From positions 544,001-608,000 of the forward strand of contig CAVRDX010000001.1 in assembly GCA_963719945.1 (NCBI GenBank): a DNA stretch of 64,000 nucleotides. The letters are read 5' to 3'. The DNA is from an uncultured Thermoplasmata archaeon (GTDB lineage: Archaea; Thermoplasmatota; Thermoplasmata; UBA10834). Positions 6,935 through 21,968 of this stretch are shown piece after piece. The stretch's first letter is position 1. Each line of letters begins with the position of its first letter. A program made the translations under genes and the position numbers. The notes under the pieces are model-generated. The model made no database searches, was not told where the DNA came from, and saw only the letters and a program-made list of their open reading frames with translations.

Positions 6935-7188
6935 TTGATGGTGCTGGCATTCGGTCGATATATGTTCCCTCATTAAAGCCTTTCGTATCGATGAGTGCAT
7001 GTCACGCATCATAAACGAAGGCATGATGCACTATGAGATATCGAGCGGGCCAGTAGTCGCAATGAACATACATGTCTATCATTGTTCTCCGGATATCAGT
7101 AAATAAATACTCATTTGCAATACGGTGTACCCGAAGCACACAGTCGGAGCTAGCTCTGACCGTGGAAGCCAAACAGGGGAATGTTAAA

Positions 7189-8655
7189 ATGATCGGTTTC
7201 CCGAAAGGAAAAATCGCGTTCCGAATGTTCCAGGAGAAGGACCTGGAATCACTTCACTGGGGAACGTTGGACGTGCTCGAGAACGCAGGAATAAAGGTCT
7301 TCAGCGAAGAATGTCTGAAGCTCCTTGAGGATGCAGGGGCCACTGTGGATTACAAGCAGAGCAGTGCCAAGATCCCCGGAAACCTCGTTGAGGAGGCCAT
7401 AACCAAGGCAAAGAAGAACATAACACTCTTTGCAAGGAACCCGAAGAACGATGTGGTACTCGATGGACGAAGAGTCTATTGCTGCACTGATGGAAACGGC
7501 ACTGGTGTTATGGATTTCGAGACCGGAAAGAGACGCATGTCTACGAGCAAGGACCTTGAGATGGTTGGCAAGGTCGCAAATGCTCTCGACTCCGCGCACA
7601 TCTTCTGGCCTTGTGTGAGCAGCCAAGACATACCTGATTATTACAGGCATGTCGTGGATCTCAAAGTCGCATTAATGAGCATCGAGAAGCATGTTCAGGT
7701 AGAGACGACCAGCCACCGCAGAGAAGCACAATGGCTCGTCAAACTCGGTTCCGCGCTCGCAGGTGGCGAGAAGGAATTGAGAAGGAGGCCAATATTCTCA
7801 TCCATGCACTGCCCGTTCTCCCCGCTCCAGCTTGACGGAGGTTCGACTGAAGGTGCTCTTGCACTCGCAAGGGCCGGCGTGCCGATATCGTTCTACGGAA
7901 TGCCACAGGCAGGCATCACCGGGCCTGTGACACTCGCAGGATCAATCATTGTGAATAACGCTGAAGTACTAGCTGGCCTAACGATGGCACAGCTCGCAGC
8001 CCCCGGCTCACCGTTCATGTACGGGACGGGCGGAGCAGCATTCGATATGAAGACAATGACTTGGGCAGGCGGCGGACCGGAGAGAGCGCTAATATCCAGT
8101 GGAGCAGGAGAACTAGCTCATTGGTACGGATTCCCGATCCTTTGTGGTGGAATAGTCACCTCCGCGAAGGTACCTGGCCCACAGTCCTGCTATGAGAAGA
8201 TGTCTAGCGGAATGCCACAGTTCTACGCGGGCTGCGACATGATTGCGGGATTGGGTCTCCTTGACGATGTTTCTATGCTCTGCTATGAGCAGATGGTCAT
8301 CGACAACGAAATGGTCAAGATAATGGCTAGACTCGCTCAAGGCGTCATCGTTGACGACGAACACATGGCAATCGACCTGATCAAGAAGGTCGGACCCGGC
8401 GGTAGCTTCCTGCCAGAAAGACACACCATGAACTGGCTTCACAAAGAGCATTTCATGACTGAGATAACTGACAGGAGGACTGGCGAGATATGGGAAGCGG
8501 ATGGCAAGAAGAGTGCCGTCGACCGCGCCAGGGAGAAGGCTGCCAAGATCATGAAGGAGCATGTGGTCCAGCCTGTCGCAGCTGAGGTCTCGAAGCGGTT
8601 CGAAGACATAATCGTAGCCGCGGAGAAGGACATCCGCGAGAATGGACTCAACTGA
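7189..8655 (+). CDS. Trimethylamine:corrinoid methyltransferase superfamily (MttB-like), non-pyrrolysine
   Basis: SPLQLD, GPVTLAGS..NAEVLAG, SAKVPGPQSCYEK, EQMVIDNE, VGPGGSFL..HT; no in-frame TAG. Confidence 0.92.
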   Translation: MIGFPKGKIAFRMFQEKDLESLHWGTLDVLENAGIKVFSEECLKLLEDAGATVDYKQSSAKIPGNLVEEAITKAKKNITLFARNPKNDVVLDGRRVYCCTDGNGTGVMDFETGKRRMSTSKDLEMVGKVANALDSAHIFWPCVSSQDIPDYYRHVVDLKVALMSIEKHVQVETTSHRREAQWLVKLGSALAGGEKELRRRPIFSSMHCPFSPLQLDGGSTEGALALARAGVPISFYGMPQAGITGPVTLAGSIIVNNAEVLAGLTMAQLAAPGSPFMYGTGGAAFDMKTMTWAGGGPERALISSGAGELAHWYGFPILCGGIVTSAKVPGPQSCYEKMSSGMPQFYAGCDMIAGLGLLDDVSMLCYEQMVIDNEMVKIMARLAQGVIVDDEHMAIDLIKKVGPGGSFLPERHTMNWLHKEHFMTEITDRRTGEIWEADGKKSAVDRAREKAAKIMKEHVVQPVAAEVSKRFEDIIVAAEKDIRENGLN

Positions 8656-8754: not shown

Positions 8755-9699
8755 TTGATACCGTTGGAGCTGGTGCGAGAGTTCGAACAGCAGATGCACA
8801 ACCTTCGAATCGGGCACACGTCATTTAGAAGAGCTTCTAGGCTCGAGAAAAAGCTCGGTATCAGACGGCTGCATCTCAAGCTGGAATCGGAGAATTCTTC
8901 AGGGACGCACAAGGACCGTTCCGCCCTTCTATACGCACTCGATGCAAGGAAGAAGGGAAAGAACACCTTGGCCGCAGTGACATGCGGCAACTACGGCGCA
9001 GCGCTCGCCTATGTGTGTTCAAAGCTCGACATGAACTGCCAGGTCTACGTACCATCAGAGTTTGCGTCGAGCAGGAACAAGGACATAGAGGCTTTTGGTG
9101 GCAATGTTGTCATAGCGCAGGGAGACTACGAGGCCGCGCTCAATGCCTGCGTGAAGGACACGACTGCAAACGGATGGTACAACGCCAATCCAGGTGGTCC
9201 TGACAAAGAGCTCGCTGTATACTCATACTCATTCATAGCAAGGGAGATAGCACAGGAACTGGGGAGACAGCCTGATTGGATATCCGTACCATTTGGAAAC
9301 GGGACGCTACTTGCAGGCATTTGGCAAGGGTTCCGCGCAATGAGCATGAAACCCAGAATCCTTGGCTACTCCAACAACAACTCTGCAATCCATGGTCTGG
9401 TTAACAAGTCACGAGTGCCCATCCCAGTGAACGGGTTGACAATAACAGAGGTGAATGAGCCATTGGCAGGCAATTTTCTCCTCGACTACATAGACGGAAT
9501 GAACGCGATACTGGAATCCAATGGGGCAGCTTTCGAGATATCTGACGAAGAGATGTTGAAAGCGTCCAAGCTCATCATGGATCAGGAATCCCTCGATATC
9601 CTACCAGCATCGGCCGGGGCGATCACTGCCATCACAAGATTAGAATCGCGCAACCACACATTCGCTGCCGTCATAACAGGCCGAGGGCACCACGGTTAG
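8755..9699 (+). CDS. PLP-dependent fold-type II enzyme, threonine synthase-like
   Basis: LKLESENSSGTHKDR (PLP Lys), TCGNYG, VPFGNGT, VITG; TTG start after GGGTGA. Confidence 0.85.
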   Translation: MIPLELVREFEQQMHNLRIGHTSFRRASRLEKKLGIRRLHLKLESENSSGTHKDRSALLYALDARKKGKNTLAAVTCGNYGAALAYVCSKLDMNCQVYVPSEFASSRNKDIEAFGGNVVIAQGDYEAALNACVKDTTANGWYNANPGGPDKELAVYSYSFIAREIAQELGRQPDWISVPFGNGTLLAGIWQGFRAMSMKPRILGYSNNNSAIHGLVNKSRVPIPVNGLTITEVNEPLAGNFLLDYIDGMNAILESNGAAFEISDEEMLKASKLIMDQESLDILPASAGAITAITRLESRNHTFAAVITGRGHHG

Positions 9700-9770
9700 G
9701 CCGTCGACCTATGTACAATTCTGTCCTAGCGAACATACCGTTCAATGGCCAAGTCCGTCCAGACAAGATA

Positions 9771-9780
9771 TTAATATATC
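9771..9780 (+). promoter_or_regulatory. Probable TATA box of the ilv operon
   Basis: TTAATATATC preceded by a purine-rich BRE-like stretch (AGACAAGA), about 30 nt upstream of leader ATG 9807. Confidence 0.6.
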
Positions 9781-9806
9781 GACAATCATCTGCAAACCCG
9801 GTACAA

Positions 9807-9887
9807 ATGTCCGCTGGTCAAGTCAATCTGACGCTTCTTCTTAGGACCCTAGAGGTCATTGTCGACCTGCGGATTGTAGGCCTGTGA
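9807..9887 (+). CDS. Putative ilv operon leader peptide (26 aa, MSAGQVNLTLLLRTLEVIVDLRIVGL)
   Basis: uORF between the TATA box and ilvB; 7 Leu, 4 Val, 2 Ile, including CTT-CTT-CTT and GTC-ATT-GTC runs. Confidence 0.75.
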   Translation: MSAGQVNLTLLLRTLEVIVDLRIVGL

Positions 9888-9945
9888 TGGGCACACGACC
9901 TGAGAGGTGTTGTGTCCATACGGGCAGGATTTGAGGAGTGTGATT
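9825..9945 (+). promoter_or_regulatory. Candidate translational attenuator (anti-SD/SD pairing plus leader hairpin)
   Basis: AAUC(UG)ACGCUUCUU 9825-9839 can pair with GAGGAGUGUGAUU 9933-9945; separate hairpin at 9887-9919. Confidence 0.55.
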
Positions 9946-9950
9946 TAGAG

Positions 9951-11633
9951 ATGAAAGGTGCCAGAGCCGCCGTGAAATTGCTGGAGAAGCAGAATGTCGA
10001 TTTGATGTTTGGCATCCCTGGCGGCGTTCTACTTCCGTTCTACGATGAGCTCGTTGACACGGATATCAGGCACATCCTTGTACGCCATGAACAGTGCTCG
10101 GCACACATGGCTGACGGTTATGCGAGAGTATCCAAGAGACCTGGCGTTTGCGTAGCGACCTCAGGACCAGGAGCCACGAATCTGGTAACTGGCGTAGCCA
10201 CCGCGTTCATGGACTCATCACCTATAATAGCGATAACAGGCCAGGTCGCGACAGGAGTGCTCGGGAACGATGCATTTCAGGAAGCAGACTCTTTCAGCCT
10301 GATGATGCCGATAACGAAGCACAACTTCAGGATAACTGACCCAAAGGACCTCCCTGAATCAATCAACCGGGCGTTCATGATAGCCACGACAGGGAGATAT
10401 GGACCTGTCCACATAGACATACCAACGGACATATTCCAGGCAGAATACAACGAAGAGGACCTCGATGTGAAGGCGAGGGTGCCAAAGCCACGCAGGAACC
10501 TCTCTGGCCTCCTGGACGCGATCAAGCTACTTGAATCAGCGGAGAGGCCCACCATAATGGTGGGTGGAGGAGTCACATGGTCACGTGCGGGGCCGGAGAT
10601 CACCGTGCTCTCCGATATGTTGATGGCGCCTATTGTCACCACATTAATGGCAAAAGGCTCCGTTCCTGATAACCATCCACTTGTCCTGGGCGTATGCGGA
10701 ATGCATGGGAAACAGGTGGCCAACTATGCATTGAACAACTGCGACGTCCTGTTAGCGATTGGAACCAGGTTCAGTGACAGAGTGACCGGCAAACTCAGCG
10801 AGTTCGGGACCAAGACGAAGGTCGTTCACGTCGATATCGACTCGTCAGAGATAGGTAAGAATGTGAAAGGCAGGGTCGGCCTCGTGGGTGATGCGTGGAC
10901 AGTCGTAAACGCCCTCATAGCGGGCCTGCAGAAGCGGAAGAAGAAGGCCACCTGGGTCGAGAGGATAAAGATACTCAAGAAGGAATGCACCTGCGACTAC
11001 AACATCAAATCAAATCCCATCAAACCACAAAAGGTCATATATGAACTGTCGAAGCTATTGCCCGATGATGCCATCGTCACGACCGAGGTGGGCCAGAACC
11101 AGATGTGGGCACTCCACTTCTACGAATGCTATGGCAACCGCATGTTCATCACATCAGGCGGTCTCGGGACCATGGGTTTCGGGTTCCCTGCGGCCATCGG
11201 TGCGAAATTGGCTAGACCAGATAGCGTCGTCGCGGATATTGCAGGCGATGGCAGCCTGCAGATGGTCTCGCATGAGTTCGCGACAGCGGTCGAGAACGAC
11301 ATACCAGTGATCGTGTGCCTGATGAATAACGGATGGCTCGGCAACGTCAAGCAATGGCAGAAGCTGTTTTATGGCTCGAGATACATTGCGACCGAGTTCG
11401 GAAGGAACCCCGATTTCGTCAAGCTCGCAGAGGCCTATGGGGCGGATGCGATAAGGGTGGAGAAGCAGTCCGAGGTCGCAGAAGCCATTCGGAGAGGAGT
11501 GAAATCCCAGATCCCGATATTGCTCGATTTCGTGATAGATCCCGAGGAGGATGTCCTTCCAATGACCCCGCCTGGCAAGGCATCCTCGGAATGCATAAAT
11601 GGAAGATGCATCTGGAAAGGAGGTGGCGATTAG
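9951..11633 (+). CDS. ilvB: Acetolactate synthase large subunit
   Basis: FGIPGG, RHEQ, TSGPGATN, GMHG, GDGS..NN TPP motif; ATG 9951 after GAGGAG. Confidence 0.96.
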   Translation: MKGARAAVKLLEKQNVDLMFGIPGGVLLPFYDELVDTDIRHILVRHEQCSAHMADGYARVSKRPGVCVATSGPGATNLVTGVATAFMDSSPIIAITGQVATGVLGNDAFQEADSFSLMMPITKHNFRITDPKDLPESINRAFMIATTGRYGPVHIDIPTDIFQAEYNEEDLDVKARVPKPRRNLSGLLDAIKLLESAERPTIMVGGGVTWSRAGPEITVLSDMLMAPIVTTLMAKGSVPDNHPLVLGVCGMHGKQVANYALNNCDVLLAIGTRFSDRVTGKLSEFGTKTKVVHVDIDSSEIGKNVKGRVGLVGDAWTVVNALIAGLQKRKKKATWVERIKILKKECTCDYNIKSNPIKPQKVIYELSKLLPDDAIVTTEVGQNQMWALHFYECYGNRMFITSGGLGTMGFGFPAAIGAKLARPDSVVADIAGDGSLQMVSHEFATAVENDIPVIVCLMNNGWLGNVKQWQKLFYGSRYIATEFGRNPDFVKLAEAYGADAIRVEKQSEVAEAIRRGVKSQIPILLDFVIDPEEDVLPMTPPGKASSECINGRCIWKGGGD

Positions 11634-11996
11634 ATGGAAGTTATGATGCTCTTGGTGTACGACCAGCCCGGCGTGATGCAACGTGTGATGGGCGAGTTCA
11701 CCAGAAAGAGGATAAATGTCGAGACCATCGTGGTCGGCAAGTGTGAGATGCCTGAGAGAGCGAGGATAGTTCTCTCCGTTACGGATAAGGAGAAGGCTCA
11801 CGGCGTGCTCGAACATCTGAGAGCGCTCCAGGAAGTCATAGAGGCCGATATCGTCGATTCAGATAGACACGAGGCATATGCCATCCTCCAAGGCAAGGAA
11901 GGGATATGCCGAGTCACAGGTACGGTGGAAGAGGTTGAGGCACTCGTAATGAAGAGCCAACCCAAGAGATACATAGAAGCTATGAATGCAATTTGA
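11634..11996 (+). CDS. ilvN: Acetolactate synthase regulatory subunit (ACT domain)
   Basis: DQPGVMQRVMGEFTRKRINVETI; abuts ilvB. Confidence 0.88.
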   Translation: MEVMMLLVYDQPGVMQRVMGEFTRKRINVETIVVGKCEMPERARIVLSVTDKEKAHGVLEHLRALQEVIEADIVDSDRHEAYAILQGKEGICRVTGTVEEVEALVMKSQPKRYIEAMNAI

Positions 11997-12013: not shown

Positions 12014-12994
12014 ATGGCTAGGATATACTACAACAAGGATGCGAACCTGAACGCGCTCAAGGGCAAGAAGGTCGCAGTGATAGGATACGGAATACAGGGA
12101 AGAGCCCAGTCGCTCAACCTGAGAGACAGCGGAGTGAACGTGGTAGTTGGACTCAAGTTCAGGGACGATTACTGGAAGCAGGCGAAGGCCGATAAGATGG
12201 AAGTCCTGGATATCCCTACAGCGGTAAAGAGTGCCGATATCGTCATGATGCTCATCCCAGACGAGGTCCAGAAGATGGCCTACGATGCAGAGGTAGCGCC
12301 GAACTTGAGACCAGGAATGACTCTCGACTTCGCTCACGGATTCAACATCCACTTCAAACTCATAGTCCCTCCGAAGGACGTCGATGTCATAATGGTCGCT
12401 CCGAAGGGACCTGGTGCCTTGGTCAGAGAAACTTTCGTAGCGGGCAATGGAGTACCCGCACTGATAGCGGTCCATCAGGATGCGAGTGGGAAGGCCAAGA
12501 AGACCGCGCTTGCCATAGCGAAGGGACTCGGAGCGACAACGAAGGGAGTCATCGAAACCACCTTCACCGAGGAGACTGAGACAGACCTGTTCGGAGAGCA
12601 GGTGGACCTATGCGGTGGCGCGAGCGACCTCATAAAGAAATCGTTCGAGGTTCTGGTCGAAGCCGGCTACCAACCAGAGATCGCTTATTTCGAGGTGCTC
12701 CATGAGCTCAAACTCATAATCGATCTTGTCCAGAAGGGCGGTATCGAGGGCATGTGGAAGAACGTCTCCAACACCGCCGAATATGGCGGAAGGACACGTG
12801 GACCAAGGATAATCGATGATCGGGTCAAGAAGAACATGCAGGCCGTCCTCAAGGAGATCCAATCAGGTGCATTTGCCAAGGAATGGGTCAACGAATGCAG
12901 CTCAGGCATGGCCACACTCACCAAGCTCAGGAAAGATGGTGAGAAGGACCAGATCGAAGTCGTCGGCAAATCAATAAGGAAGATGTTCAAGTAG
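12014..12994 (+). CDS. ilvC: Ketol-acid reductoisomerase
   Basis: IGYGIQG, FAHGFNIH, APKGPG, ETETDLFGEQ, SNTAEYG. Confidence 0.97.
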   Translation: MARIYYNKDANLNALKGKKVAVIGYGIQGRAQSLNLRDSGVNVVVGLKFRDDYWKQAKADKMEVLDIPTAVKSADIVMMLIPDEVQKMAYDAEVAPNLRPGMTLDFAHGFNIHFKLIVPPKDVDVIMVAPKGPGALVRETFVAGNGVPALIAVHQDASGKAKKTALAIAKGLGATTKGVIETTFTEETETDLFGEQVDLCGGASDLIKKSFEVLVEAGYQPEIAYFEVLHELKLIIDLVQKGGIEGMWKNVSNTAEYGGRTRGPRIIDDRVKKNMQAVLKEIQSGAFAKEWVNECSSGMATLTKLRKDGEKDQIEVVGKSIRKMFK

Positions 12995-13046: not shown

Positions 13047-13838
13047 GTGGAGAAGTTGGAACCCTCTATACCAAACGGGATCCGGCTCGGCCGATTCAGG
13101 ATTGGGGACCGGACTTTCGTCGGAATCGTCGATGGAGACGAAGTTATAGAGACAGACAGGACATCCATGGAAGACGTGGTCAGTCAGGGATTCACGAGGA
13201 AAGCTATCAGTCACCAATTCTCGCGAGTCACTGTCCTCGCACCGTTCCCAAGACCATCGAAGATCATCTGCATCGGCCTCAACTATCGCAGTCATATCGA
13301 GGAGATGAACTGGGAGGTCCCAAAGGTGCCGATAATCTTCACCAAGCCGTCCTCCGCTATAATCGGTCCAGGAGACAATATTTGCATACCGAAGATGTCT
13401 TCAAGGGTCGATTACGAGGGTGAATCCGCCATAATAATCAGCAAGAGGGCTAGACACACCGATGACGGCGGATCCCACATTTTCGGTTACACTTGCATGA
13501 ATGATGTCACCGCCCGAGACCTCCAGAAGATCGACCCTGATTGGACAAGGGCGAAAGGCTTCGACACCTTCGCCCCGATGGGCCCGTTCGTTTCAGGTCG
13601 ATCCCCGAAAAGGATATTGACTAGATTGAACGGAAACGTGGTACAGGACGCGCCTCTATCCGACAGAGTGTTCGGCGACGCGGCCTTGGTCGAATACATA
13701 TCAAAAGTCATGACCCTCGAGCCAGGAGACATCATTGCAACTGGTACACCATCTGGAATCTCCGCCATGAGACCCGGAGATCTGGTCGAGGTGGACCTTG
13801 AAGGCATCGGATGTTTGAAGAACAGGGTAGTCAGTTAG
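13047..13838 (+). CDS. Fumarylacetoacetate hydrolase family protein
   Basis: KIICIGLNY, FTKP, DYEGE, NDVTARD, KGFDTF, GDIIATGTPSG; start could be TTG 13056. Confidence 0.92.
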   Translation: MEKLEPSIPNGIRLGRFRIGDRTFVGIVDGDEVIETDRTSMEDVVSQGFTRKAISHQFSRVTVLAPFPRPSKIICIGLNYRSHIEEMNWEVPKVPIIFTKPSSAIIGPGDNICIPKMSSRVDYEGESAIIISKRARHTDDGGSHIFGYTCMNDVTARDLQKIDPDWTRAKGFDTFAPMGPFVSGRSPKRILTRLNGNVVQDAPLSDRVFGDAALVEYISKVMTLEPGDIIATGTPSGISAMRPGDLVEVDLEGIGCLKNRVVS

Positions 13839-13842
13839 GATA

Positions 13843-14784
13843 ATGAGAGGAGATGAGAACTTGCAGATTCAGCCGACCGAGAAGATCTGGAAGAATGGAG
13901 AGTTGATATCGTGGAAGGATGCGACAGTTCACGTGCTCACGCATTGCCTGCATTACGGAACTGGAGCCTTCGAGGGAATCAGATGTTACAGCACGGACAA
14001 AGGACCTGCGATTTTCAGGCTCAAGGACCATATGTCGAGGCTCCACACATCTGCGAAGACAATCAATATCCAGATACCACACAGCGTTGAAGAACTCTGC
14101 ACCGCGGCTAGAGATCTGGTGAAAGTGAACAATCTTGATTCGTGCTACATAAGGCCTATCACATTTTTCGGTGTCTCCGGCATCGGTGTCAATCCTATAG
14201 GCTATCCGATCGAGACATTCATCATCGCGTTCCCTATGGGATCGTATTTGGGAGATGAAGGCATGAAGAAGGGCATCAGGGTACACACATCGTCATGGCA
14301 CAGGATGCCGGTCGGTTCGGTCCCAGCAACCGCAAAGGTCTGCGGCGACTACCTGAATAGCGCCCTCGCAGTCATGGAAGCTAAGCAGAATGGGTTCGAC
14401 GAAGCTATAATGCTCAACGATCAGCACATGGTCGCAGAGGGTTCTGGTGAGAACATATTCATGGTCAGGAACAATAGGATACTCACCCCCCCGATCAGCA
14501 CCGGCATACTACCTGGTATAACGAGAGAATCGGTCATGACGATCGCAGGAGACCTTGGATATCAGGTTGTCGAACAGAATTTCTCCAGAGGCGAGATGTA
14601 TCTAGCGGATGAGTTGTTCTTCACTGGCACTGCAGCCGAGGTCACACCGATCAGAGAGGTAGACCGAAGGACCGTTGCGAGTGGCTCACCTGGACCTATC
14701 ACCATGGCGCTCCAGGAGAGATTCCTTCAGATTGCCCGAGGCAATGATACCAAGTACTCATCCTGGCTGGACATTGCAAGATGA
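13843..14784 (+). CDS. ilvE: Branched-chain amino acid aminotransferase
   Basis: LHYGTGAFEGIR, AK..GDY, EGSGENIF, LPGITR, GTAAEVTP. Confidence 0.96.
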   Translation: MRGDENLQIQPTEKIWKNGELISWKDATVHVLTHCLHYGTGAFEGIRCYSTDKGPAIFRLKDHMSRLHTSAKTINIQIPHSVEELCTAARDLVKVNNLDSCYIRPITFFGVSGIGVNPIGYPIETFIIAFPMGSYLGDEGMKKGIRVHTSSWHRMPVGSVPATAKVCGDYLNSALAVMEAKQNGFDEAIMLNDQHMVAEGSGENIFMVRNNRILTPPISTGILPGITRESVMTIAGDLGYQVVEQNFSRGEMYLADELFFTGTAAEVTPIREVDRRTVASGSPGPITMALQERFLQIARGNDTKYSSWLDIAR

Positions 14785-15149: not shown

Positions 15150-15974
15150 CTAGCAGGCTCGGATGAATATCCTATTCTCAGGATCTATTATCTCGAAGTG
15201 GGATCTCATGCGACCCATGAGAGCCTCTGTCCGGCCAAGCATCAAAAATCCCTGAGGCCGAAGGGATTCATGCAAATTCTTGATCACTTCGTCGTGAGAA
15301 GGCCGAGAGAAGTAGATGAGCACATTCCTACAGATTATCGCATCGAAGAACTTGCTCTTGGGCGCCTCCATAAGATTCTCCTTCATGAACCGAACTCTCG
15401 TTCTCAGAAGGTCGTTGATCTCGTATGACGACTCAGTTTTGATGAAGTAGCGCTTAAGAAGGGATATTGGGATGTTCTTCACCTGTAGCTCTGAATAGAC
15501 CCCTTTGCGAGCATATGCTAGGGCGCTAAGAGAGATGTCAGTGCCAGTCACAATCGCAATCATATCATCAGACATATTCGCACGCCGCATCTCCTCATTC
15601 AGACACATGGCAATCGTATAGGTCTCCTGTCCTGTTGCACATCCAGCACTCCAAATCCGCAATATCCCTCCAGTTTGCCGTTTCGACCTAAGGAGTGGAC
15701 GTATGATCTTTTCAGAGACGGCCTCAAATGCCCCCTCATCTCGGAAGAATTCGGTCACATTTATCGATAGAGCACCTATCAGCTCGCTGGTCTCCCCATC
15801 GTCATGGACGAGCAAATCGATATATGACCCAATATCTGGCATCCCTGACCGGCCCATCCTCTTCCTGATGCTACGCATCATGAATGTTGGTGAATAGCCA
15901 GATATGTCGATTCCTCGTGATTCAAACAGATGCTCGCGGATGCGGACCAACGCAGCATCATCAGTGAGCGTCAT
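15150..15974 (-). CDS. cheR: Chemotaxis methyltransferase
   Basis: INVTEFFRD, IWSAGCATGQE, GTDIS, CRNVLIYF. Confidence 0.96.
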   Translation of the reverse strand: MTLTDDAALVRIREHLFESRGIDISGYSPTFMMRSIRKRMGRSGMPDIGSYIDLLVHDDGETSELIGALSINVTEFFRDEGAFEAVSEKIIRPLLRSKRQTGGILRIWSAGCATGQETYTIAMCLNEEMRRANMSDDMIAIVTGTDISLSALAYARKGVYSELQVKNIPISLLKRYFIKTESSYEINDLLRTRVRFMKENLMEAPKSKFFDAIICRNVLIYFSRPSHDEVIKNLHESLRPQGFLMLGRTEALMGRMRSHFEIIDPENRIFIRAC

Positions 15975-16178
15975 ACCATCTGTGGATGTCTATCAGGTTA
16001 GATAGTTTCTTCCTTGACCCGTCTGGCCATGACAAATGATTTCACATCATCAGAAATGAGTTTCTGGACGACATACTTTTATATTGTCCAGGGTGATTTT
16101 GACCAAGATGCGGGTGTTCAAAAAGCTTTCGATTGAAGATCCAAGAGAACTTCACCCGAGTGTTGTAAAGGTGATTCG

Positions 16179-18140
16179 TTGAGATTCCCCCTCACCGCGA
16201 AACTAGTGTCTGTAATCCTCATTCTTGTATTGGTGCCAGTGGCAGGCCTCAGCTATCTTGCTCTGGACGGTTTGAACAACATCAGGGGGAACGTAGATGT
16301 CCTCTACACTGAAAACATGCAGGTCGCCTCATTCATCGCCAATGGATCCACTTCACTCGCAGATGTTGAGAGCATGTTCATCTTGTACTACGTGAACTAT
16401 GGTTCTTCCCCGTCAACACAATATAAGACTGACCTACTGGCCCAAGTGCAGGATTTCAACAGTTTCGTCTACACATTCGAGCAGAGCTATAGTTTCAGCG
16501 TCCTGCCGAATATGGCTGAAATAGTGACCAATCAAGGCAGGCAGGATCTGTTGACCGATCAGACTACTGCACTCAACATAATAGATACCAGATGGGCTCA
16601 GTATCAGATAGAGCTCAATGCCGTCTTCGACGACCTAGATGATGCAGATTATGTTGCGGCTGCGGCATCCATGGATAATGCCACCATCGAGATGGTCGCC
16701 ATCAACTCCGCAATGAATGACCTCATTGTCACCTGCGTTGGCGGAGCAGCCCTCATGAACATCGTCGCGGAGGACACCATACGGGCGAGTGTCTTCTGGA
16801 CAATCATTGGAGGCACCTCAGTAGCCATCGTAATATCAATCATATCAATGGGCGTCTCGATGACAGTCACGAGACCAATAGTCACAGTTTCCAAGGCCGC
16901 GATGACAATCTCCGAGGGGAATTTCACCACCAGGCTTGAGATCAATGTCAATGATGATGAGATAGGTGACCTCGTGAAGTCCATGAATCTTCTCATTGAT
17001 AATACCTCGAAGCCGCTCCAGAGGCTCATCGAGAGTGCCGAGGCAATCTCAGCGGGCGACTGGACAATCGATATGAATGTTGAGGCCAAGGGCGATATCG
17101 CAAGGCTCGTAGGCAGCTTTAAGAAGATGAGGACGAACCTCATGACACTCACAGAGCAGATACAGGTCGCATCGAAGACCATCCTAGAATCATCGGCAAT
17201 CCTCGCGGAGACCGCCAAGCACATGACAGATGCAACACAGCAGGTATCATCCTCTGTCACTCAGACATCGAAGGGTGCCCAGATACAGGCAGCGAAGGTC
17301 GACGAGATGGTAAGGATGCTTGGCGAGCAGACGAAGGCAATCTACGATGTGGTCCAGAGCTCCCAGAATGCAGCAAGGGCGTCCGAGGATGCAAGCGATG
17401 TGGCGCAGAACGGTAGCAGATCAGCGGAGGACGCATTGCAGAGGATAAAGAGCCTGCTCACCAGCGTCGAAGAGACCGCTGAATCCATGAATGCCCTATC
17501 CAAGAAATCCAAGGAGATATCAGAGATCGTCATGATAATCACAAACATAGCGCAGCAGACCAACTTATTATCACTGAATGCGGCGATAGAAGCTGCCAGA
17601 GCGGGAGAGCACGGGCGAGGATTCGCCGTCGTCGCAGACGAAGTTCGAAAGCTCGCTGAGGGCTCCAGAAAAGCCGCGGGCCAGATTCAGGGCTTGCTCG
17701 AATCTGTCGAGCACGATATTGAATCGAGCACACACAAGATGGATCAGACCCGGATGAACGTCTCCGAAGGGACAAGAACCATCTCTGACGCACTCAAATC
17801 GCTTGAGGATATCGCAGCCACCGTAGAGGAGACAGCCGCTATGGTTCAGGAGATAAGCTCTTCGACGCAAGAGCAAAAGGCACTAACAGAGAGTCTCGCA
17901 AAGAATCTGGATGAGGTTGCAAGCATAGCGAACGAGACTTCATCATCGGTAGAGGAAGTATCCGCTTCAACGGAGGAAGTCGCTGCAGGGATGGAGGAAC
18001 TGACTGCCTCTGCTCAGGATCTCTCCGACCTCGCCAATGCATTGAACGATATCACCAAGAGCATATCCACCGTCAATCAGGAAATCATGAAACGCGTGCA
18101 TGAAGAGATTGAAACGCGTGATAAGAGGGAGCGGAATTGA
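16179..18140 (+). CDS. Methyl-accepting chemotaxis protein (2 TM, helical sensor, 2 HAMP)
   Basis: [38 protein letters not shown]; DEIGDL HAMP motif. Confidence 0.96.
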
Positions 18141-18604
18141 TGGATAAATCTACCCCGAGCCAGCAATACATAGTCTTTAGGCTTGGGAAGGAAGAGTACG
18201 CATTTGACATAGTCAATGTCAAGGAGATAAAGGACATTGATGAGATCGCCAAGGTTCACAGAACCCAGTCTTACATTGAGGGCGTCATGAACCTCAGAGG
18301 AAAGTTGGTGACAATCATCGACCTTAGGAAGAGGTTGGGACTGAAAACGAAATCACTAAACGAAGCATCCAAAATCGTGGTGATCGAGGCTCCTGACGCA
18401 CCCGTAGGATTTCTCGTTGATGAAGTATCTGAGGTCTTGAGACTGTCTGAATCAGATGTCGAGGCACCCCCATCGTACATCGCAAATTCGCTTGAGGCAG
18501 AATACGTCCGTGGCATCGCCAAACTGGGCGAAAGGCTGATAACAATTGTCGACCCAGTCAAGATATTAGAGTTATCACCGAATGAAACCCCTGGAGGAGG
18601 ATGA
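18140..18604 (+). CDS. cheW: Chemotaxis coupling protein
   Basis: YIVFRLGKEEYA, GVMNLRG, GFLVDEV. Confidence 0.95.
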   Translation: MDKSTPSQQYIVFRLGKEEYAFDIVNVKEIKDIDEIAKVHRTQSYIEGVMNLRGKLVTIIDLRKRLGLKTKSLNEASKIVVIEAPDAPVGFLVDEVSEVLRLSESDVEAPPSYIANSLEAEYVRGIAKLGERLITIVDPVKILELSPNETPGGG

Positions 18605-18608
18605 GGAG

Positions 18609-18974
18609 ATGGCAAAAGTTCTCGTGGTAGACGATTCAGAATTCATGCGTAGAGTGCTTAAGAACATCCTTGAGAACGGTGGACACACGGTAAGAGAAGC
18701 AAGGAACGCAAATGAGGCTCTTGAGCTCTTCAAGAAGTTCGGCTCCGATGTCATCACAATGGATATCGTGATGCCAGAGACTGATGGCATCGAGACCGTC
18801 AAGAGACTAAAAGAAGCCGATGATAAAGTGAAGATCATCATGGTTTCCGCTCTGGGCCACCAGAAGACGGTCATGAGAGCATTGGAAGCCGGTGCCCTTG
18901 ATTTCATAATGAAACCATTCACAGCAGATGATGTTCTCGAATCCGTGAACGCGGTTCTCCAAATGGGCATATGA
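18609..18974 (+). CDS. cheY: Chemotaxis response regulator
   Basis: VLVVDD, MDIVMP, SA, KPF. Confidence 0.94.
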   Translation: MAKVLVVDDSEFMRRVLKNILENGGHTVREARNANEALELFKKFGSDVITMDIVMPETDGIETVKRLKEADDKVKIIMVSALGHQKTVMRALEAGALDFIMKPFTADDVLESVNAVLQMGI

Positions 18975-18984
18975 GAGGTGTCTG

Positions 18985-20043
18985 ATGCCAGACTCGGTCA
19001 AGATCCTCGTCGTCGATGACAGCGCATATATGCGAGTAGTTCTACGCGACATGTTGGAATCTGAGGAAGGATTGACCGTATTAGATACAGCAAAGGATGG
19101 TATCGATGCGCTCGAGAAGCTGGAGAGCCTACGACCAGACATCGTACTCCTCGACATACAGATGCCTCGGATGGACGGACTCACTACCCTCCAAATGATA
19201 ATGAAGAACAGGCCCACGAGGGTGGTCATGCTGAGCGCGATGGACAAGATAGATGGTCAGCTACCATTGAGAGCATTATCGTTGGGAGCAATCGATTTCA
19301 TTCCCAAGCCAAGCGGAACCATATCAATAGACATAATCAACTACAAGGCCAGGATAGCAAACCATCTCAGGAGCATAGCAGGGGCGAAGCTAGAAGCTCT
19401 TCAGAGAAAGACCGCGACTGTCCGTTTACTCTCGAGTGAATCAGAGAAGACGCCAGACATACATGCCAAGACCAAAGCAATCGTATTTGCCGCATCGACG
19501 GGAGGTCCACGGGCCCTGGAGACGGTGTTCTCCATCCTGCCAAAGAATCTTCCAGCATCGATGTTCATAGTTCAGCATATTCCTTCCGAATTCTCGACAC
19601 TATTCGCCAAGAGGCTCGATGCATTGCTAGGCCCGTCGGTGGAGCTCGCATCAGATCGAGCGTTCGTTGAAACCAATAAGACATATCTAGCGCCTGGCGG
19701 CAGACATCTCATCCTCGAGCCGAAGGAGCGCAAGGGTATCATGATGAAGTTGGATGACGGCCCGCCAGTACAGTTCGTCCGTCCATCTGCGAATATCCTA
19801 TTCGAGAGCGCAGCACGATGCTATGGGCAGAAACTCATGGGAATAGTCCTTACGGGGATGGGGTCAGATGGTGCAAGAGGAGCGGGCATCATCAAGAGAT
19901 ACGGTGGCAGCGTCATCGTCCAGAACGAGGAATCTTCAGTGATGTTCGGCATGGCCAAAGCAACCATAGGAGCGGGTGCTGTAGACGAAGTGTTGCCACT
20001 GGAGGCAATTCCAAGCAGGATCATAGATTTCATCGAGGAGTGA
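18985..20043 (+). CDS. cheB: Chemotaxis methylesterase/response regulator
   Basis: REC domain plus ASTGGP, VQH, LTGMGSDGA. Confidence 0.96.
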   Translation: MPDSVKILVVDDSAYMRVVLRDMLESEEGLTVLDTAKDGIDALEKLESLRPDIVLLDIQMPRMDGLTTLQMIMKNRPTRVVMLSAMDKIDGQLPLRALSLGAIDFIPKPSGTISIDIINYKARIANHLRSIAGAKLEALQRKTATVRLLSSESEKTPDIHAKTKAIVFAASTGGPRALETVFSILPKNLPASMFIVQHIPSEFSTLFAKRLDALLGPSVELASDRAFVETNKTYLAPGGRHLILEPKERKGIMMKLDDGPPVQFVRPSANILFESAARCYGQKLMGIVLTGMGSDGARGAGIIKRYGGSVIVQNEESSVMFGMAKATIGAGAVDEVLPLEAIPSRIIDFIEE

Positions 20044-21968
20044 TACGACTGACAAAGGAGTTCGATCTCAACAAGTACTCGAAGCTCTTCGTGAGCGAAT
20101 CCAGAGAGTACCTCCGTTCACTTAATGAGGCGATGATAGCGCTCGAATCGAACGGGGAAGACAAAGAGCTTATCGATCAGATGTTCAGGGCATGCCATAC
20201 GCTCAAAGGCATGGCAAGCATGATGAATCTCAATCCTATCACTGAGACAGCGCACGCGCTCGAAGATGTTCTCGCTTCCATCAGGGACGGAAAGATGTCA
20301 GTGAATGAAACGGTTATCGAGGGCATATTCAAGGGCATCGACGGACTAGAATCCATGGTCTCCGAGGTCGAACGTACCCTTGATGTCAGCCAGAACCCAG
20401 AGCTAGTCGCCAGACTCAGGACACTAACCACTAAACCCCAGGAAACGAAGAAGGCTCCGAAAAAGAAGGCATCTGCCATCGAAATGAAGGTGTCCTCAAA
20501 AGGAAATGTAATCAACATAAAGCTTGCGCGCAGATGCGCCTTGCCCTCTGCCAGGGCAATAGTGATTATGAAAGAACTCGAGAAGGGCGGATCGATCCTG
20601 AGCATGACCCCGTCCGAGGACGATATCGAGAACGAGCGACCCTTCGATGAGCTAGTCATTGAAGTGGACCCTCTGGAGAACTATGCGGATGTCCTTTCGA
20701 GAATAGCAAATATGACGGATGTTGAGCAGCTCCTCGAAGGAGAGGCTGGCACCCCGAAGAACCAGATGAAGCGAGTGTCCAGGCTGGAGAAGAAAACCAT
20801 GGATGGTCAGGAGATTCCGCTCGTGCAGACAGTGAAAGTGGGGATGGACAAACTGGACGATCTCCTCGACGATGTCGGCGAACTTGTAATCGGCAGAAGC
20901 AGACTGGTCGAGAAAGCAACATCGAGCGAAGATTACGAACTCCAGGAGATATCATCACTGATTGATAATCTCACTTCAGAGATCCAGGCGAAGGTGCTGG
21001 GCATACGCATGATACCCCTTGAGTATGTCATGAGCCGATTCCCTAGGATGGTCCGAGATCTGGCCAAAAGCCAAGAAAAGGAGGTCGAGTTCGTCGTCGA
21101 TGGAGGGAATATCGAGCTCGACAGGACTGTCGTCGATAGGATATCAGAGCCCATAGTCCACATAATCAGAAACGCAATCGATCACGGTATAGAGATGCCC
21201 GATGACAGAGATAAGATCGGCAAGAATCGCAAGGGGCTAATCAGAGTGGTCGCATCCAAGCAGCAGGACCATGTATTGATCGAGATAACGGATGACGGAC
21301 GAGGCTTGGATTTCGATCGAATACGACGGAGTGCTGTGACAAAAGGATTCATGTCCAAGGAGAGGGCAGATGCCGCACTCGGGCGAGAACTGATAGAGCT
21401 CATGTTCCTCCCAGGATTCACCACGAAAACCGAAGTATCAGAAACATCAGGAAGAGGTGTTGGTCTCGATGTCGTCAAGAGAGGTGTCGAGGACCTTGGA
21501 GGCTCCGTGATGATGTCCACCTCGAAAGGGGCTGGTACAACCATCTCTCTCTGGCTACCATTCACCCTGGCGATCATCGACGCAATGATGACATCGATCA
21601 ATGAGCAGATATATGCTGCTCCCATGAGTTCGGTAATCGAATCCCACTCTTTCGAAGCATCTGAGATAAGGCTAATACGCAACAGAGAGGTCGTCCAGCT
21701 GAGGGGCGAGGTGCTCCCTCTTATCGACATGTATAATTTCTTCAATTTGGAGCTTTCACCCAAGAAGGAGAGCATCAACACCCTGATCGTTCAGAGCCGT
21801 GAGAGACGCGCGGCCATCAGGGTCGACGAGCTCATCGGGCATCAGCAGATAGTCGTAAAATCATTGGATAGACGCCTAAGGAATACCAGAGGCATATCTG
21901 GTGGAACGATATTGGGCAGCGGCAAGATAGCGCTCATACTGGATGTAGATTCAATCCTCGGAGACTGA
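20040..21968 (+). CDS. cheA: Chemotaxis histidine kinase
   Basis: FRACHTLKG (Hpt), RNAIDHG, DDGRG, SGRGVGLDVV, C-terminal CheW domain; GTG start overlapping the cheB stop. Confidence 0.96.
   Translation: MIRLTKEFDLNKYSKLFVSESREYLRSLNEAMIALESNGEDKELIDQMFRACHTLKGMASMMNLNPITETAHALEDVLASIRDGKMSVNETVIEGIFKGIDGLESMVSEVERTLDVSQNPELVARLRTLTTKPQETKKAPKKKASAIEMKVSSKGNVINIKLARRCALPSARAIVIMKELEKGGSILSMTPSEDDIENERPFDELVIEVDPLENYADVLSRIANMTDVEQLLEGEAGTPKNQMKRVSRLEKKTMDGQEIPLVQTVKVGMDKLDDLLDDVGELVIGRSRLVEKATSSEDYELQEISSLIDNLTSEIQAKVLGIRMIPLEYVMSRFPRMVRDLAKSQEKEVEFVVDGGNIELDRTVVDRISEPIVHIIRNAIDHGIEMPDDRDKIGKNRKGLIRVVASKQQDHVLIEITDDGRGLDFDRIRRSAVTKGFMSKERADAALGRELIELMFLPGFTTKTEVSETSGRGVGLDVVKRGVEDLGGSVMMSTSKGAGTTISLWLPFTLAIIDAMMTSINEQIYAAPMSSVIESHSFEASEIRLIRNREVVQLRGEVLPLIDMYNFFNLELSPKKESINTLIVQSRERRAAIRVDELIGHQQIVVKSLDRRLRNTRGISGGTILGSGKIALILDVDSILGD

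Follow-up and report, generated by a model that had tools for sequence, protein, structure and literature searches.

A conserved leader reading frame upstream of ilvB in the archaeal order UBA10834 as a probable ribosome-read sensor of branched-chain amino acid supply

Does a short open reading frame (ORF) placed just behind the promoter of an archaeal ilvB operon, with half of its codons specifying Leu, Val or Ile (L/V/I), the end products of that operon, allow the translating ribosome to gauge the supply of these amino acids? The ORF lies in a window of 64,000 nucleotides (the whole stretch of DNA analyzed, to which all bare coordinates refer) from a member of the Thermoplasmata, whose ilvB shares 83% identity with its counterpart in RBG_19FT_COMBO_56_21, assigned to the order UBA10834 (10.1101/2020.03.09.984617). 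After the leader follow, on the plus strand, ilvB for the acetolactate synthase large subunit (9951-11633; TIGR00118 above cut-off), an ilvN-like ACT regulatory subunit (11634-11996; PF22629 above cut-off), ilvC for ketol-acid reductoisomerase (12017-12994; TIGR00465), a fumarylacetoacetate-hydrolase (FAH)-family gene (13047-13838; PF01557) and ilvE for the branched-chain aminotransferase (13843-14784; TIGR01122). The operon had been described in an earlier note as ilvBNC-ilvE; those genes are all found, with the amendment that the FAH-family gene intervenes between ilvC and ilvE, while ilvD and leuABCD lie elsewhere in the genome, outside the operon. The ilvB start at ATG 9951 is backed by orthologs and by a GAGGAG site (9933-9938) within the Shine-Dalgarno (SD) site, placed at 9933-9940 from sequence and alignment. 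The promoter region is preceded by a gene for an MttB-like methyltransferase without in-frame TAG (7072-8655) and, adjoining it, one for a threonine-synthase-like PLP enzyme (8755-9699); just 3' of the operon, cheR, MCP, cheW, cheY, cheB and cheA-like ORFs form a chemotaxis cluster (15150-21968).

The leader ORF (9807-9887, plus strand) translates into 26 codons, of which 7 are Leu, 4 Val and 2 Ile, ends in TGA 63 nt before the ilvB ATG, and contains the runs CTT-CTT-CTT and GTC-ATT-GTC, all in agreement with the earlier description. Its promoter comprises a BRE-like purine-rich hexamer (9763-9768) and a TATA box, TTAATATA (9771-9778), whose first position is 36 nt from the ATG; on the basis of archaeal TATA-to-start spacing, transcription is predicted to begin near 9801. 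The probability that at least 13 of the 25 non-start codons would be L/V/I, given a proteome share of 0.237, is 0.002, and the ORF ranks first among the 99 promoter-proximal short ORFs of the genome (those starting 20 to 41 nt after a TATA-like box), a rank that taken alone is only suggestive. The peptide has no match in Pfam, and a plasmid BLAST search returned none.

We have compared 40 ilvB loci of the order for which upstream sequence exists (this one and 39 relatives), from two families, with ilvB genes 69-100% identical over aligned segments. A comparable ORF in relatives, on which the earlier note had made its proposal depend, is present before ilvB in all 40: it starts with ATG, has 26-30 codons including 10-15 L/V/I codons, and stops 53-65 nt before ilvB. 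Its indels are all multiples of three and internal stops are absent; conservation to this extent establishes that the ORF is real. A TTAATA/TTTATA box at a fixed distance from the ATG is likewise found in 40/40 loci, the interval from its start being 29-32 nt in 36 of them and 36 nt in the remaining four (this genome and its three closest kin), as would befit the near-leaderless ORF at the head of the transcript that had been postulated, the transcription start itself being a predicted position. In this clade of four, alignment shows that the ancestral leaderless ATG (at 9801-9803 here) has become GTA and that an ATG two codons further 3' in the same frame has taken over; since turnover of a start codon in frame is hard to account for otherwise, the frame is probably translated. 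A covariance model of the leader finds a single copy in each of the 17 genomes sampled from the order (17/17), while its matches outside the order are all short and weak.

The amino acid bias belongs to a single frame, with an L/V/I share of 0.456 against 0.157 and 0.055 in the other two. It is concentrated in a main block of regulatory codons (9828-9863), in which 11 of 12 positions have a column-wise L/V/I content of 50-100%. Among 479 N-U-N codons there are one Phe and no Met, versus approximately 60 and 47 expected from genome usage, and 42 UUG-Leu codons; as these counts are inflated by the kinship of the loci, the test was redone on the tree. There, 79 synonymous changes and 43 exchanges among Leu, Val and Ile were recognized, and none of the 29 first-position changes ending in N-U-Y yielded Phe (a probability of about 1e-5 if a third had been expected to). 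Because Phe would be admissible whether pyrimidines, base pairing or hydrophobicity were being selected, we conclude that selection acts on amino-acid identity. The rare codons CTT, CTA, GTT and ATT are enriched in the leader ORF, and CTA, which represents 7% of Leu codons genome-wide, is near-invariant at 9849-9851 (38/40 loci). Some codons are fixed at the nucleotide level (CTAG, GACCTGCG); the invariant residues, AG and DLR, are those whose fixed codons encode the RNA helices described below. Within 9849-9857 the letters TAG (as part of CTA-G or GTA-G) are constant in the 40 loci. Read in the +1 frame they form a stop codon, and an SD-like RGGU word comes next; the arrangement might serve to sense a rare codon, to make the ribosome pause or to trap frameshifts.

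Extending the search to leuA, as had been suggested, we found a Leu-rich ORF before this gene in 26 of the 26 loci of the order with upstream sequence; in the leuA-C-D-B leader it consists of 19 codons with an SD of its own (G000:C1 ~221191-221132, minus strand; loci L163, L164-L192). An accessory (second) ileS is preceded by a leaderless 13-codon ORF with a run of four Ile codons (G000:C4:209340-209381; loci L126, L133-L155, L161), and this Ile run is kept in every one of the 23 loci of the order for which upstream sequence exists. Single examples of both kinds occur also in other families of the class. Codon content therefore tracks the downstream pathway in three unrelated leaders, Leu-rich before leuA, with an Ile run before ileS and with all three residues before ilvB. 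Structurally, the leuA leader carries a run of U4-U6 directly 5' of the leuA SD and, judging from this run, may use a U-tract, unlike the ilvB leader, while in the ileS leader a conserved helix joins the first codons of the ORF to a segment past its stop, and a separate hairpin contains the ileS SD. Before hisG (33154, minus strand; G000:C4) a 13-codon ORF lies 150 nt upstream, behind a TATA box and a palindrome to which we return below; with one His codon adjoining its stop, it is a possible His leader.

Two elements dominate the RNA anatomy of the ilvB leader. Segment 1 (9810-9819, core CCGC) pairs with segment 2 (9864-9873, core GCGG), according to RNAalifold and pair counts, in a helix that encloses the regulatory codons and in which 80% of alignment cells are paired across 10 pairs (22-24/24 for the four core pairs). 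Pair counts show that segment 2 can also pair, weakly, with 9882-9886; the alternative helix 2:3 comprises five pairs, of which two are G-U; 94% of cells would permit it, and the alignment displays neither covariation nor compensatory change for it. The second element is a strong hairpin (9880-9925), recognized by folding and by compensatory changes in its upper stem, with an energy of −28.9 kcal/mol and a z-score of −4.3 in this genome; it folds in 40/40 loci, at −19 to −32 kcal/mol with a median z of −3.0. It begins five nt 5' of the stop codon and ends 7 nt 5' of the ilvB SD, which is not part of it; its 5' arm takes in the final two codons of the leader together with the stop codon, and this stop (9885-9887 here) falls within the hairpin in all 40 loci. 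Helix 1:2 and the hairpin jointly reach 84% paired cells, versus at most 43% in slid controls, and 20 compensated cells versus 7.6 in shuffles, the 84% and the 20 cells being inflated by the relatedness of the loci. No U-tract follows the hairpin (the longest U run within 12 nt is at most 2 in 34/40 loci), and a reading of 9880-9925 as an intrinsic terminator was rejected on this account. Rfam yields no match for the ilvB leader, for the leuA and ileS leaders, or for the more distant ilvB leaders described further on.

We consider it likely, from comparative sequence analysis, that the leader ORF is a ribosome-read sensor of the supply of branched-chain aminoacyl-tRNAs, and infer that the leader regulates the operon. 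The 5' end of the mRNA would be a leaderless or near-leaderless ORF by which the ribosome gauges how far tRNA-Leu, -Val and -Ile are charged, and the leuA and accessory ileS leaders would be parallel sensors tuned to Leu and Ile. Ribosomes would load at the 5' end, as the fixed TATA spacing and the start-codon turnover suggest. In a shortage of branched-chain amino acids the ribosome would linger at the L/V/I codons, still 8-20 codons short of the stop, and would leave the hairpin folded; with ample supply it would arrive at a stop codon that is observed to lie inside the 5' arm of the hairpin, and, given this geometry, a finishing ribosome would have to melt the structure. Since the hairpin would be folded on stalling, and since a biosynthetic operon should be on when supply is short, the hairpin is most simply modeled as the structure of the ON state, opposite in sense to a bacterial terminator. 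The amino-acid-sensing attenuator proposed in the earlier note is thus upheld by the comparative tests in its sensor half; an attenuator of the ilvBN/ilvGMEDA type is not what we find, as there is no U-tract terminator, the stop is inside the hairpin, and no conserved SD-hiding helix was found.

Other explanations of the leader have been weighed. A chance ORF in a GC-rich leader would be a reasonable suspicion for this genome alone, as p = 0.002 for one ORF of 26 codons out of 99 candidates falls short of significance by itself, but the conservation in 40/40 loci, the start turnover in frame, the codon-level selection (in-frame bias and tree test) and the parallel leaders refute it and reduce its probability to nearly nil. 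If instead the product were a small membrane or regulatory peptide acting in trans, its L/V/I richness would reflect hydrophobicity, and the best 19-residue Kyte-Doolittle window (1.6 here, median 1.8, at least 1.6 in 31/40 loci) is in fact compatible with a membrane helix. It is the exclusion of Phe and Met, rather than hydropathy, that speaks against a membrane peptide; the same block accommodates Gly, Pro, Glu and Thr, the invariant AG and DLR coincide with the fixed codons that encode helices, and composition shifts with the downstream pathway in the leuA and ileS leaders. A peptide acting in trans is accordingly held to be highly improbable. We also regard as very unlikely that the leader acts as a structured RNA to which a protein or ligand binds, and in which translation of the ORF would merely remodel the RNA or deliver ribosomes and codon identity would have no effect on output. 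The nucleotide-invariant codons would fit such an RNA, for which there is a precedent in the LEU element of actinobacteria, whose codon mutants led to no clear outcome (PMC1262725), but an RNA constraint cannot account for UUY being avoided while UUG is accepted, nor for the free exchange among Leu, Val and Ile, and there is no Rfam match.

A classical three-helix transcription attenuator, in which stalling would let helix 2:3 unzip the base of an otherwise terminating 3:4, as in C. glutamicum ilvBNC, finds some encouragement in the conservation of potentially mutually exclusive 1:2, 2:3 and 3:4 pairings of repeated CCGY/GCGG words, and in the fact that stalls at most of the regulatory codons would leave segment 2 free. 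We nevertheless think it very unlikely: the hairpin is without U-tract, the five pairs of 2:3, with their two G-U and no covariation, would have to compete with a hairpin of approximately −20 to −32 kcal/mol, and a ribosome sitting at the stop itself melts 3:4. Finally, an operator-like palindrome upstream, discussed below, is a candidate for an alternative route to regulation of the operon.

For the leader as a sensor, two outputs can be envisioned. In one, which we prefer slightly and to which, within the sensor reading, we give somewhat less than an even chance, the melted, ribosome-free nascent RNA would be exposed to aCPSF1/FttA, leading to termination and lower ilvB expression. This factor terminates transcription on uncoupling from translation (PMC13681488, PMC8116511); it is encoded in the genome (TIGR03675 above cut-off) and is widespread in archaea, so that its presence is merely permissive. 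Archaeal termination favors U-rich tracts (PMC7515710, PMC13681488), and aCPSF1/FttA itself prefers U-rich RNA; the absence of a conserved tract of this kind from the 40 leaders counts against this output. In the other, which within the same reading we rate a little lower still, the freed hairpin arm or the vacated C/U-rich codons would pair over the ilvB ribosome-binding site, in the manner of the mycobacterial polycysteine leaders (10.1101/834739). SD sequestration was examined by folding the whole leader with a ribosome footprint, by folding the 3' part only, by comparing duplexes with synonymous and shuffled controls, and by a register search, and the same tests were applied to the leuA, ileS and Methanomassiliicoccales leaders; overall the effects are small or inconsistent, with a few single loci (L084, the Archaeoglobaceae-type L121, L197) fitting well. 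In equilibrium folding without pseudoknots, SD access shifts on average by just 1-2 kcal/mol with ribosome position, in the direction that this output would require: the mean cost of opening the SD is 6.9 kcal/mol with the ribosome stalled, 8.8 with the ribosome at the stop and 8.1 without ribosome, versus 8.6 stalled and 9.0 at the stop in codon-shuffled controls, and in this genome the same kind of folding gives 6.2 stalled and 10.9 at the stop. Control targets pair with the ORF as well as the ilvB start region does, and the register search found no register-conserved anti-SD helix. The full proposition, that archaea run ribosome-read amino-acid regulons (ilvB, leuA, accessory ileS) in which a stop-straddling hairpin, melted by the finishing ribosome, gates cleavage and termination by aCPSF1/FttA, is one that we advance tentatively, with about one chance in three of being correct. 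If true, it would tie the pace of translation to the archaeal homologue of the 3'-end nuclease of eukaryotes.

These results can be set beside the known systems. The ivbL-ilvBN and ilvL-ilvGMEDA operons of E. coli have an L/V/I-rich leader ORF at the 5' end and a hairpin-plus-U-tract terminator 3' of it. Among bacterial leader-peptide sensors of this kind, the archaeal leader would by analogy work most like that of C. glutamicum ilvBNC, with which it shares an L/V/I-rich ORF heading the operon, a leaderless start and, if the weak helix 2:3 forms, three overlapping helices; C. glutamicum, however, has a hairpin-plus-U-tract terminator 3' of the ORF (PMC11857589), whereas the archaeal leader has no U-tract and has its stop inside the last hairpin. 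An Rfam search reveals no sequence relation to bacterial ilv leaders. With classical attenuators the archaeal leader has in common an ORF of end-product codons under selection; it differs from them in that there is no U-tract terminator and the stop is not 5' of a terminator hairpin. The polycysteine sORFs of the mycobacterial 'ribulon' are similarly leaderless cognate-codon ORFs that head several related operons without intrinsic terminator (10.1101/834739), though for other amino acids and in another domain of life; there an SD-hiding duplex was proven by mutation, whereas no conserved anti-SD helix was found in the archaeal leader. The actinobacterial LEU element before leuA (PMC1262725) also has a Leu-codon ORF within alternative structures, and in single archaeal sequences, too, the SD region is a possible pairing partner of C/U-rich Leu codons, but the Leu-codon:SD stem conserved in LEU elements is not kept in register in the archaeal leader (folding without pseudoknots). 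In Streptomyces coelicolor, similar regulatory codons upstream of ilvB were mutated and regulation was unaffected, as reported in PMC1262725.

For archaea, the nearest catalogued element that we have identified is the leuA-Halobacteria motif (Rfam RF03001), a conserved RNA that is also named after a gene of the branched-chain pathway; its 53-nt model matches neither the ilvB leader nor the leuA leader found here. The archaeal amino-acid operons known to be controlled by supply rely on DNA-binding proteins, TrpY and Tar, which act at initiation and, unlike the ilvB leader, without a leader ORF (PMC6737238). Archaeal Ribo-seq studies report uORFs that are merely likened to leader peptides, with no function assigned (PMC7261190, PMC10117724, PMC11456600), and attenuation goes unmentioned in a review of how transcription and translation are coupled in archaea (PMC8116511). 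The premise that leader-peptide attenuation is not established in archaea holds for the literature surveyed, mostly exclusive of subscription papers, in which we found no described archaeal amino-acid case; provisionally, and as far as we have found, leader-peptide amino-acid sensors have been described for bacteria only. A conserved set of pathway-matched leaders would give archaeal transcription-translation coupling its first natural readout, and opens to test the standing question of whether the speed of archaeal ribosomes controls expression downstream, and via what factor.

A separate layer of control may reside in the imperfect palindrome TGTACA-N4-TGTCC (9712-9727), a candidate transcription-factor site that is retained in most ilvB orthologs and lies approximately 55-57 nt before the ilvB TATA box. 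The shared form, TGTACA-N4-TGT(C/G)C, is found 55 nt before the leuA TATA box (G000:C1:221323, minus strand) and upstream of hisG (G000:C4:33393, minus strand), and a similar palindrome occurs before trpE (near G000:C3:41770); from this distribution it is a candidate operator of an amino-acid regulon, distinct from the leader. It resembles the TrpY box, TGTACA; tRNA-Trp sensing via codon 2 of trpY has reportedly been proposed.

Outside the order, nine genomes of Methanomassiliicoccales type, one Archaeoglobaceae genome and two unclassified archaea also have, ahead of ilvB, an ORF that ends in L/V/I codons and lies about 30 nt behind a TATA box, usually with a hairpin directly 3'; the sequence of these ORFs is not alignable to the UBA10834 leader. 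The Methanomassiliicoccales-type leaders (L049-L054, L197-L199) frequently start with GTG, and in several of them the 3' arm of the post-stop hairpin contains a UCCUC complementary to the SD, with inconsistent modeled switching. At the examined ilvB loci of family f6, of the same class, no leader ORF was found and the promoter abuts ilvB; locus L191 of this family has a Leu-run ORF before leuA all the same. Two loci of family f8 (L039, L040) have TATA-proximal ORFs before ilvB that end in just two to four Ile/Leu codons, and are, to judge from their sequence, possibly reduced versions of the ilvB leader.
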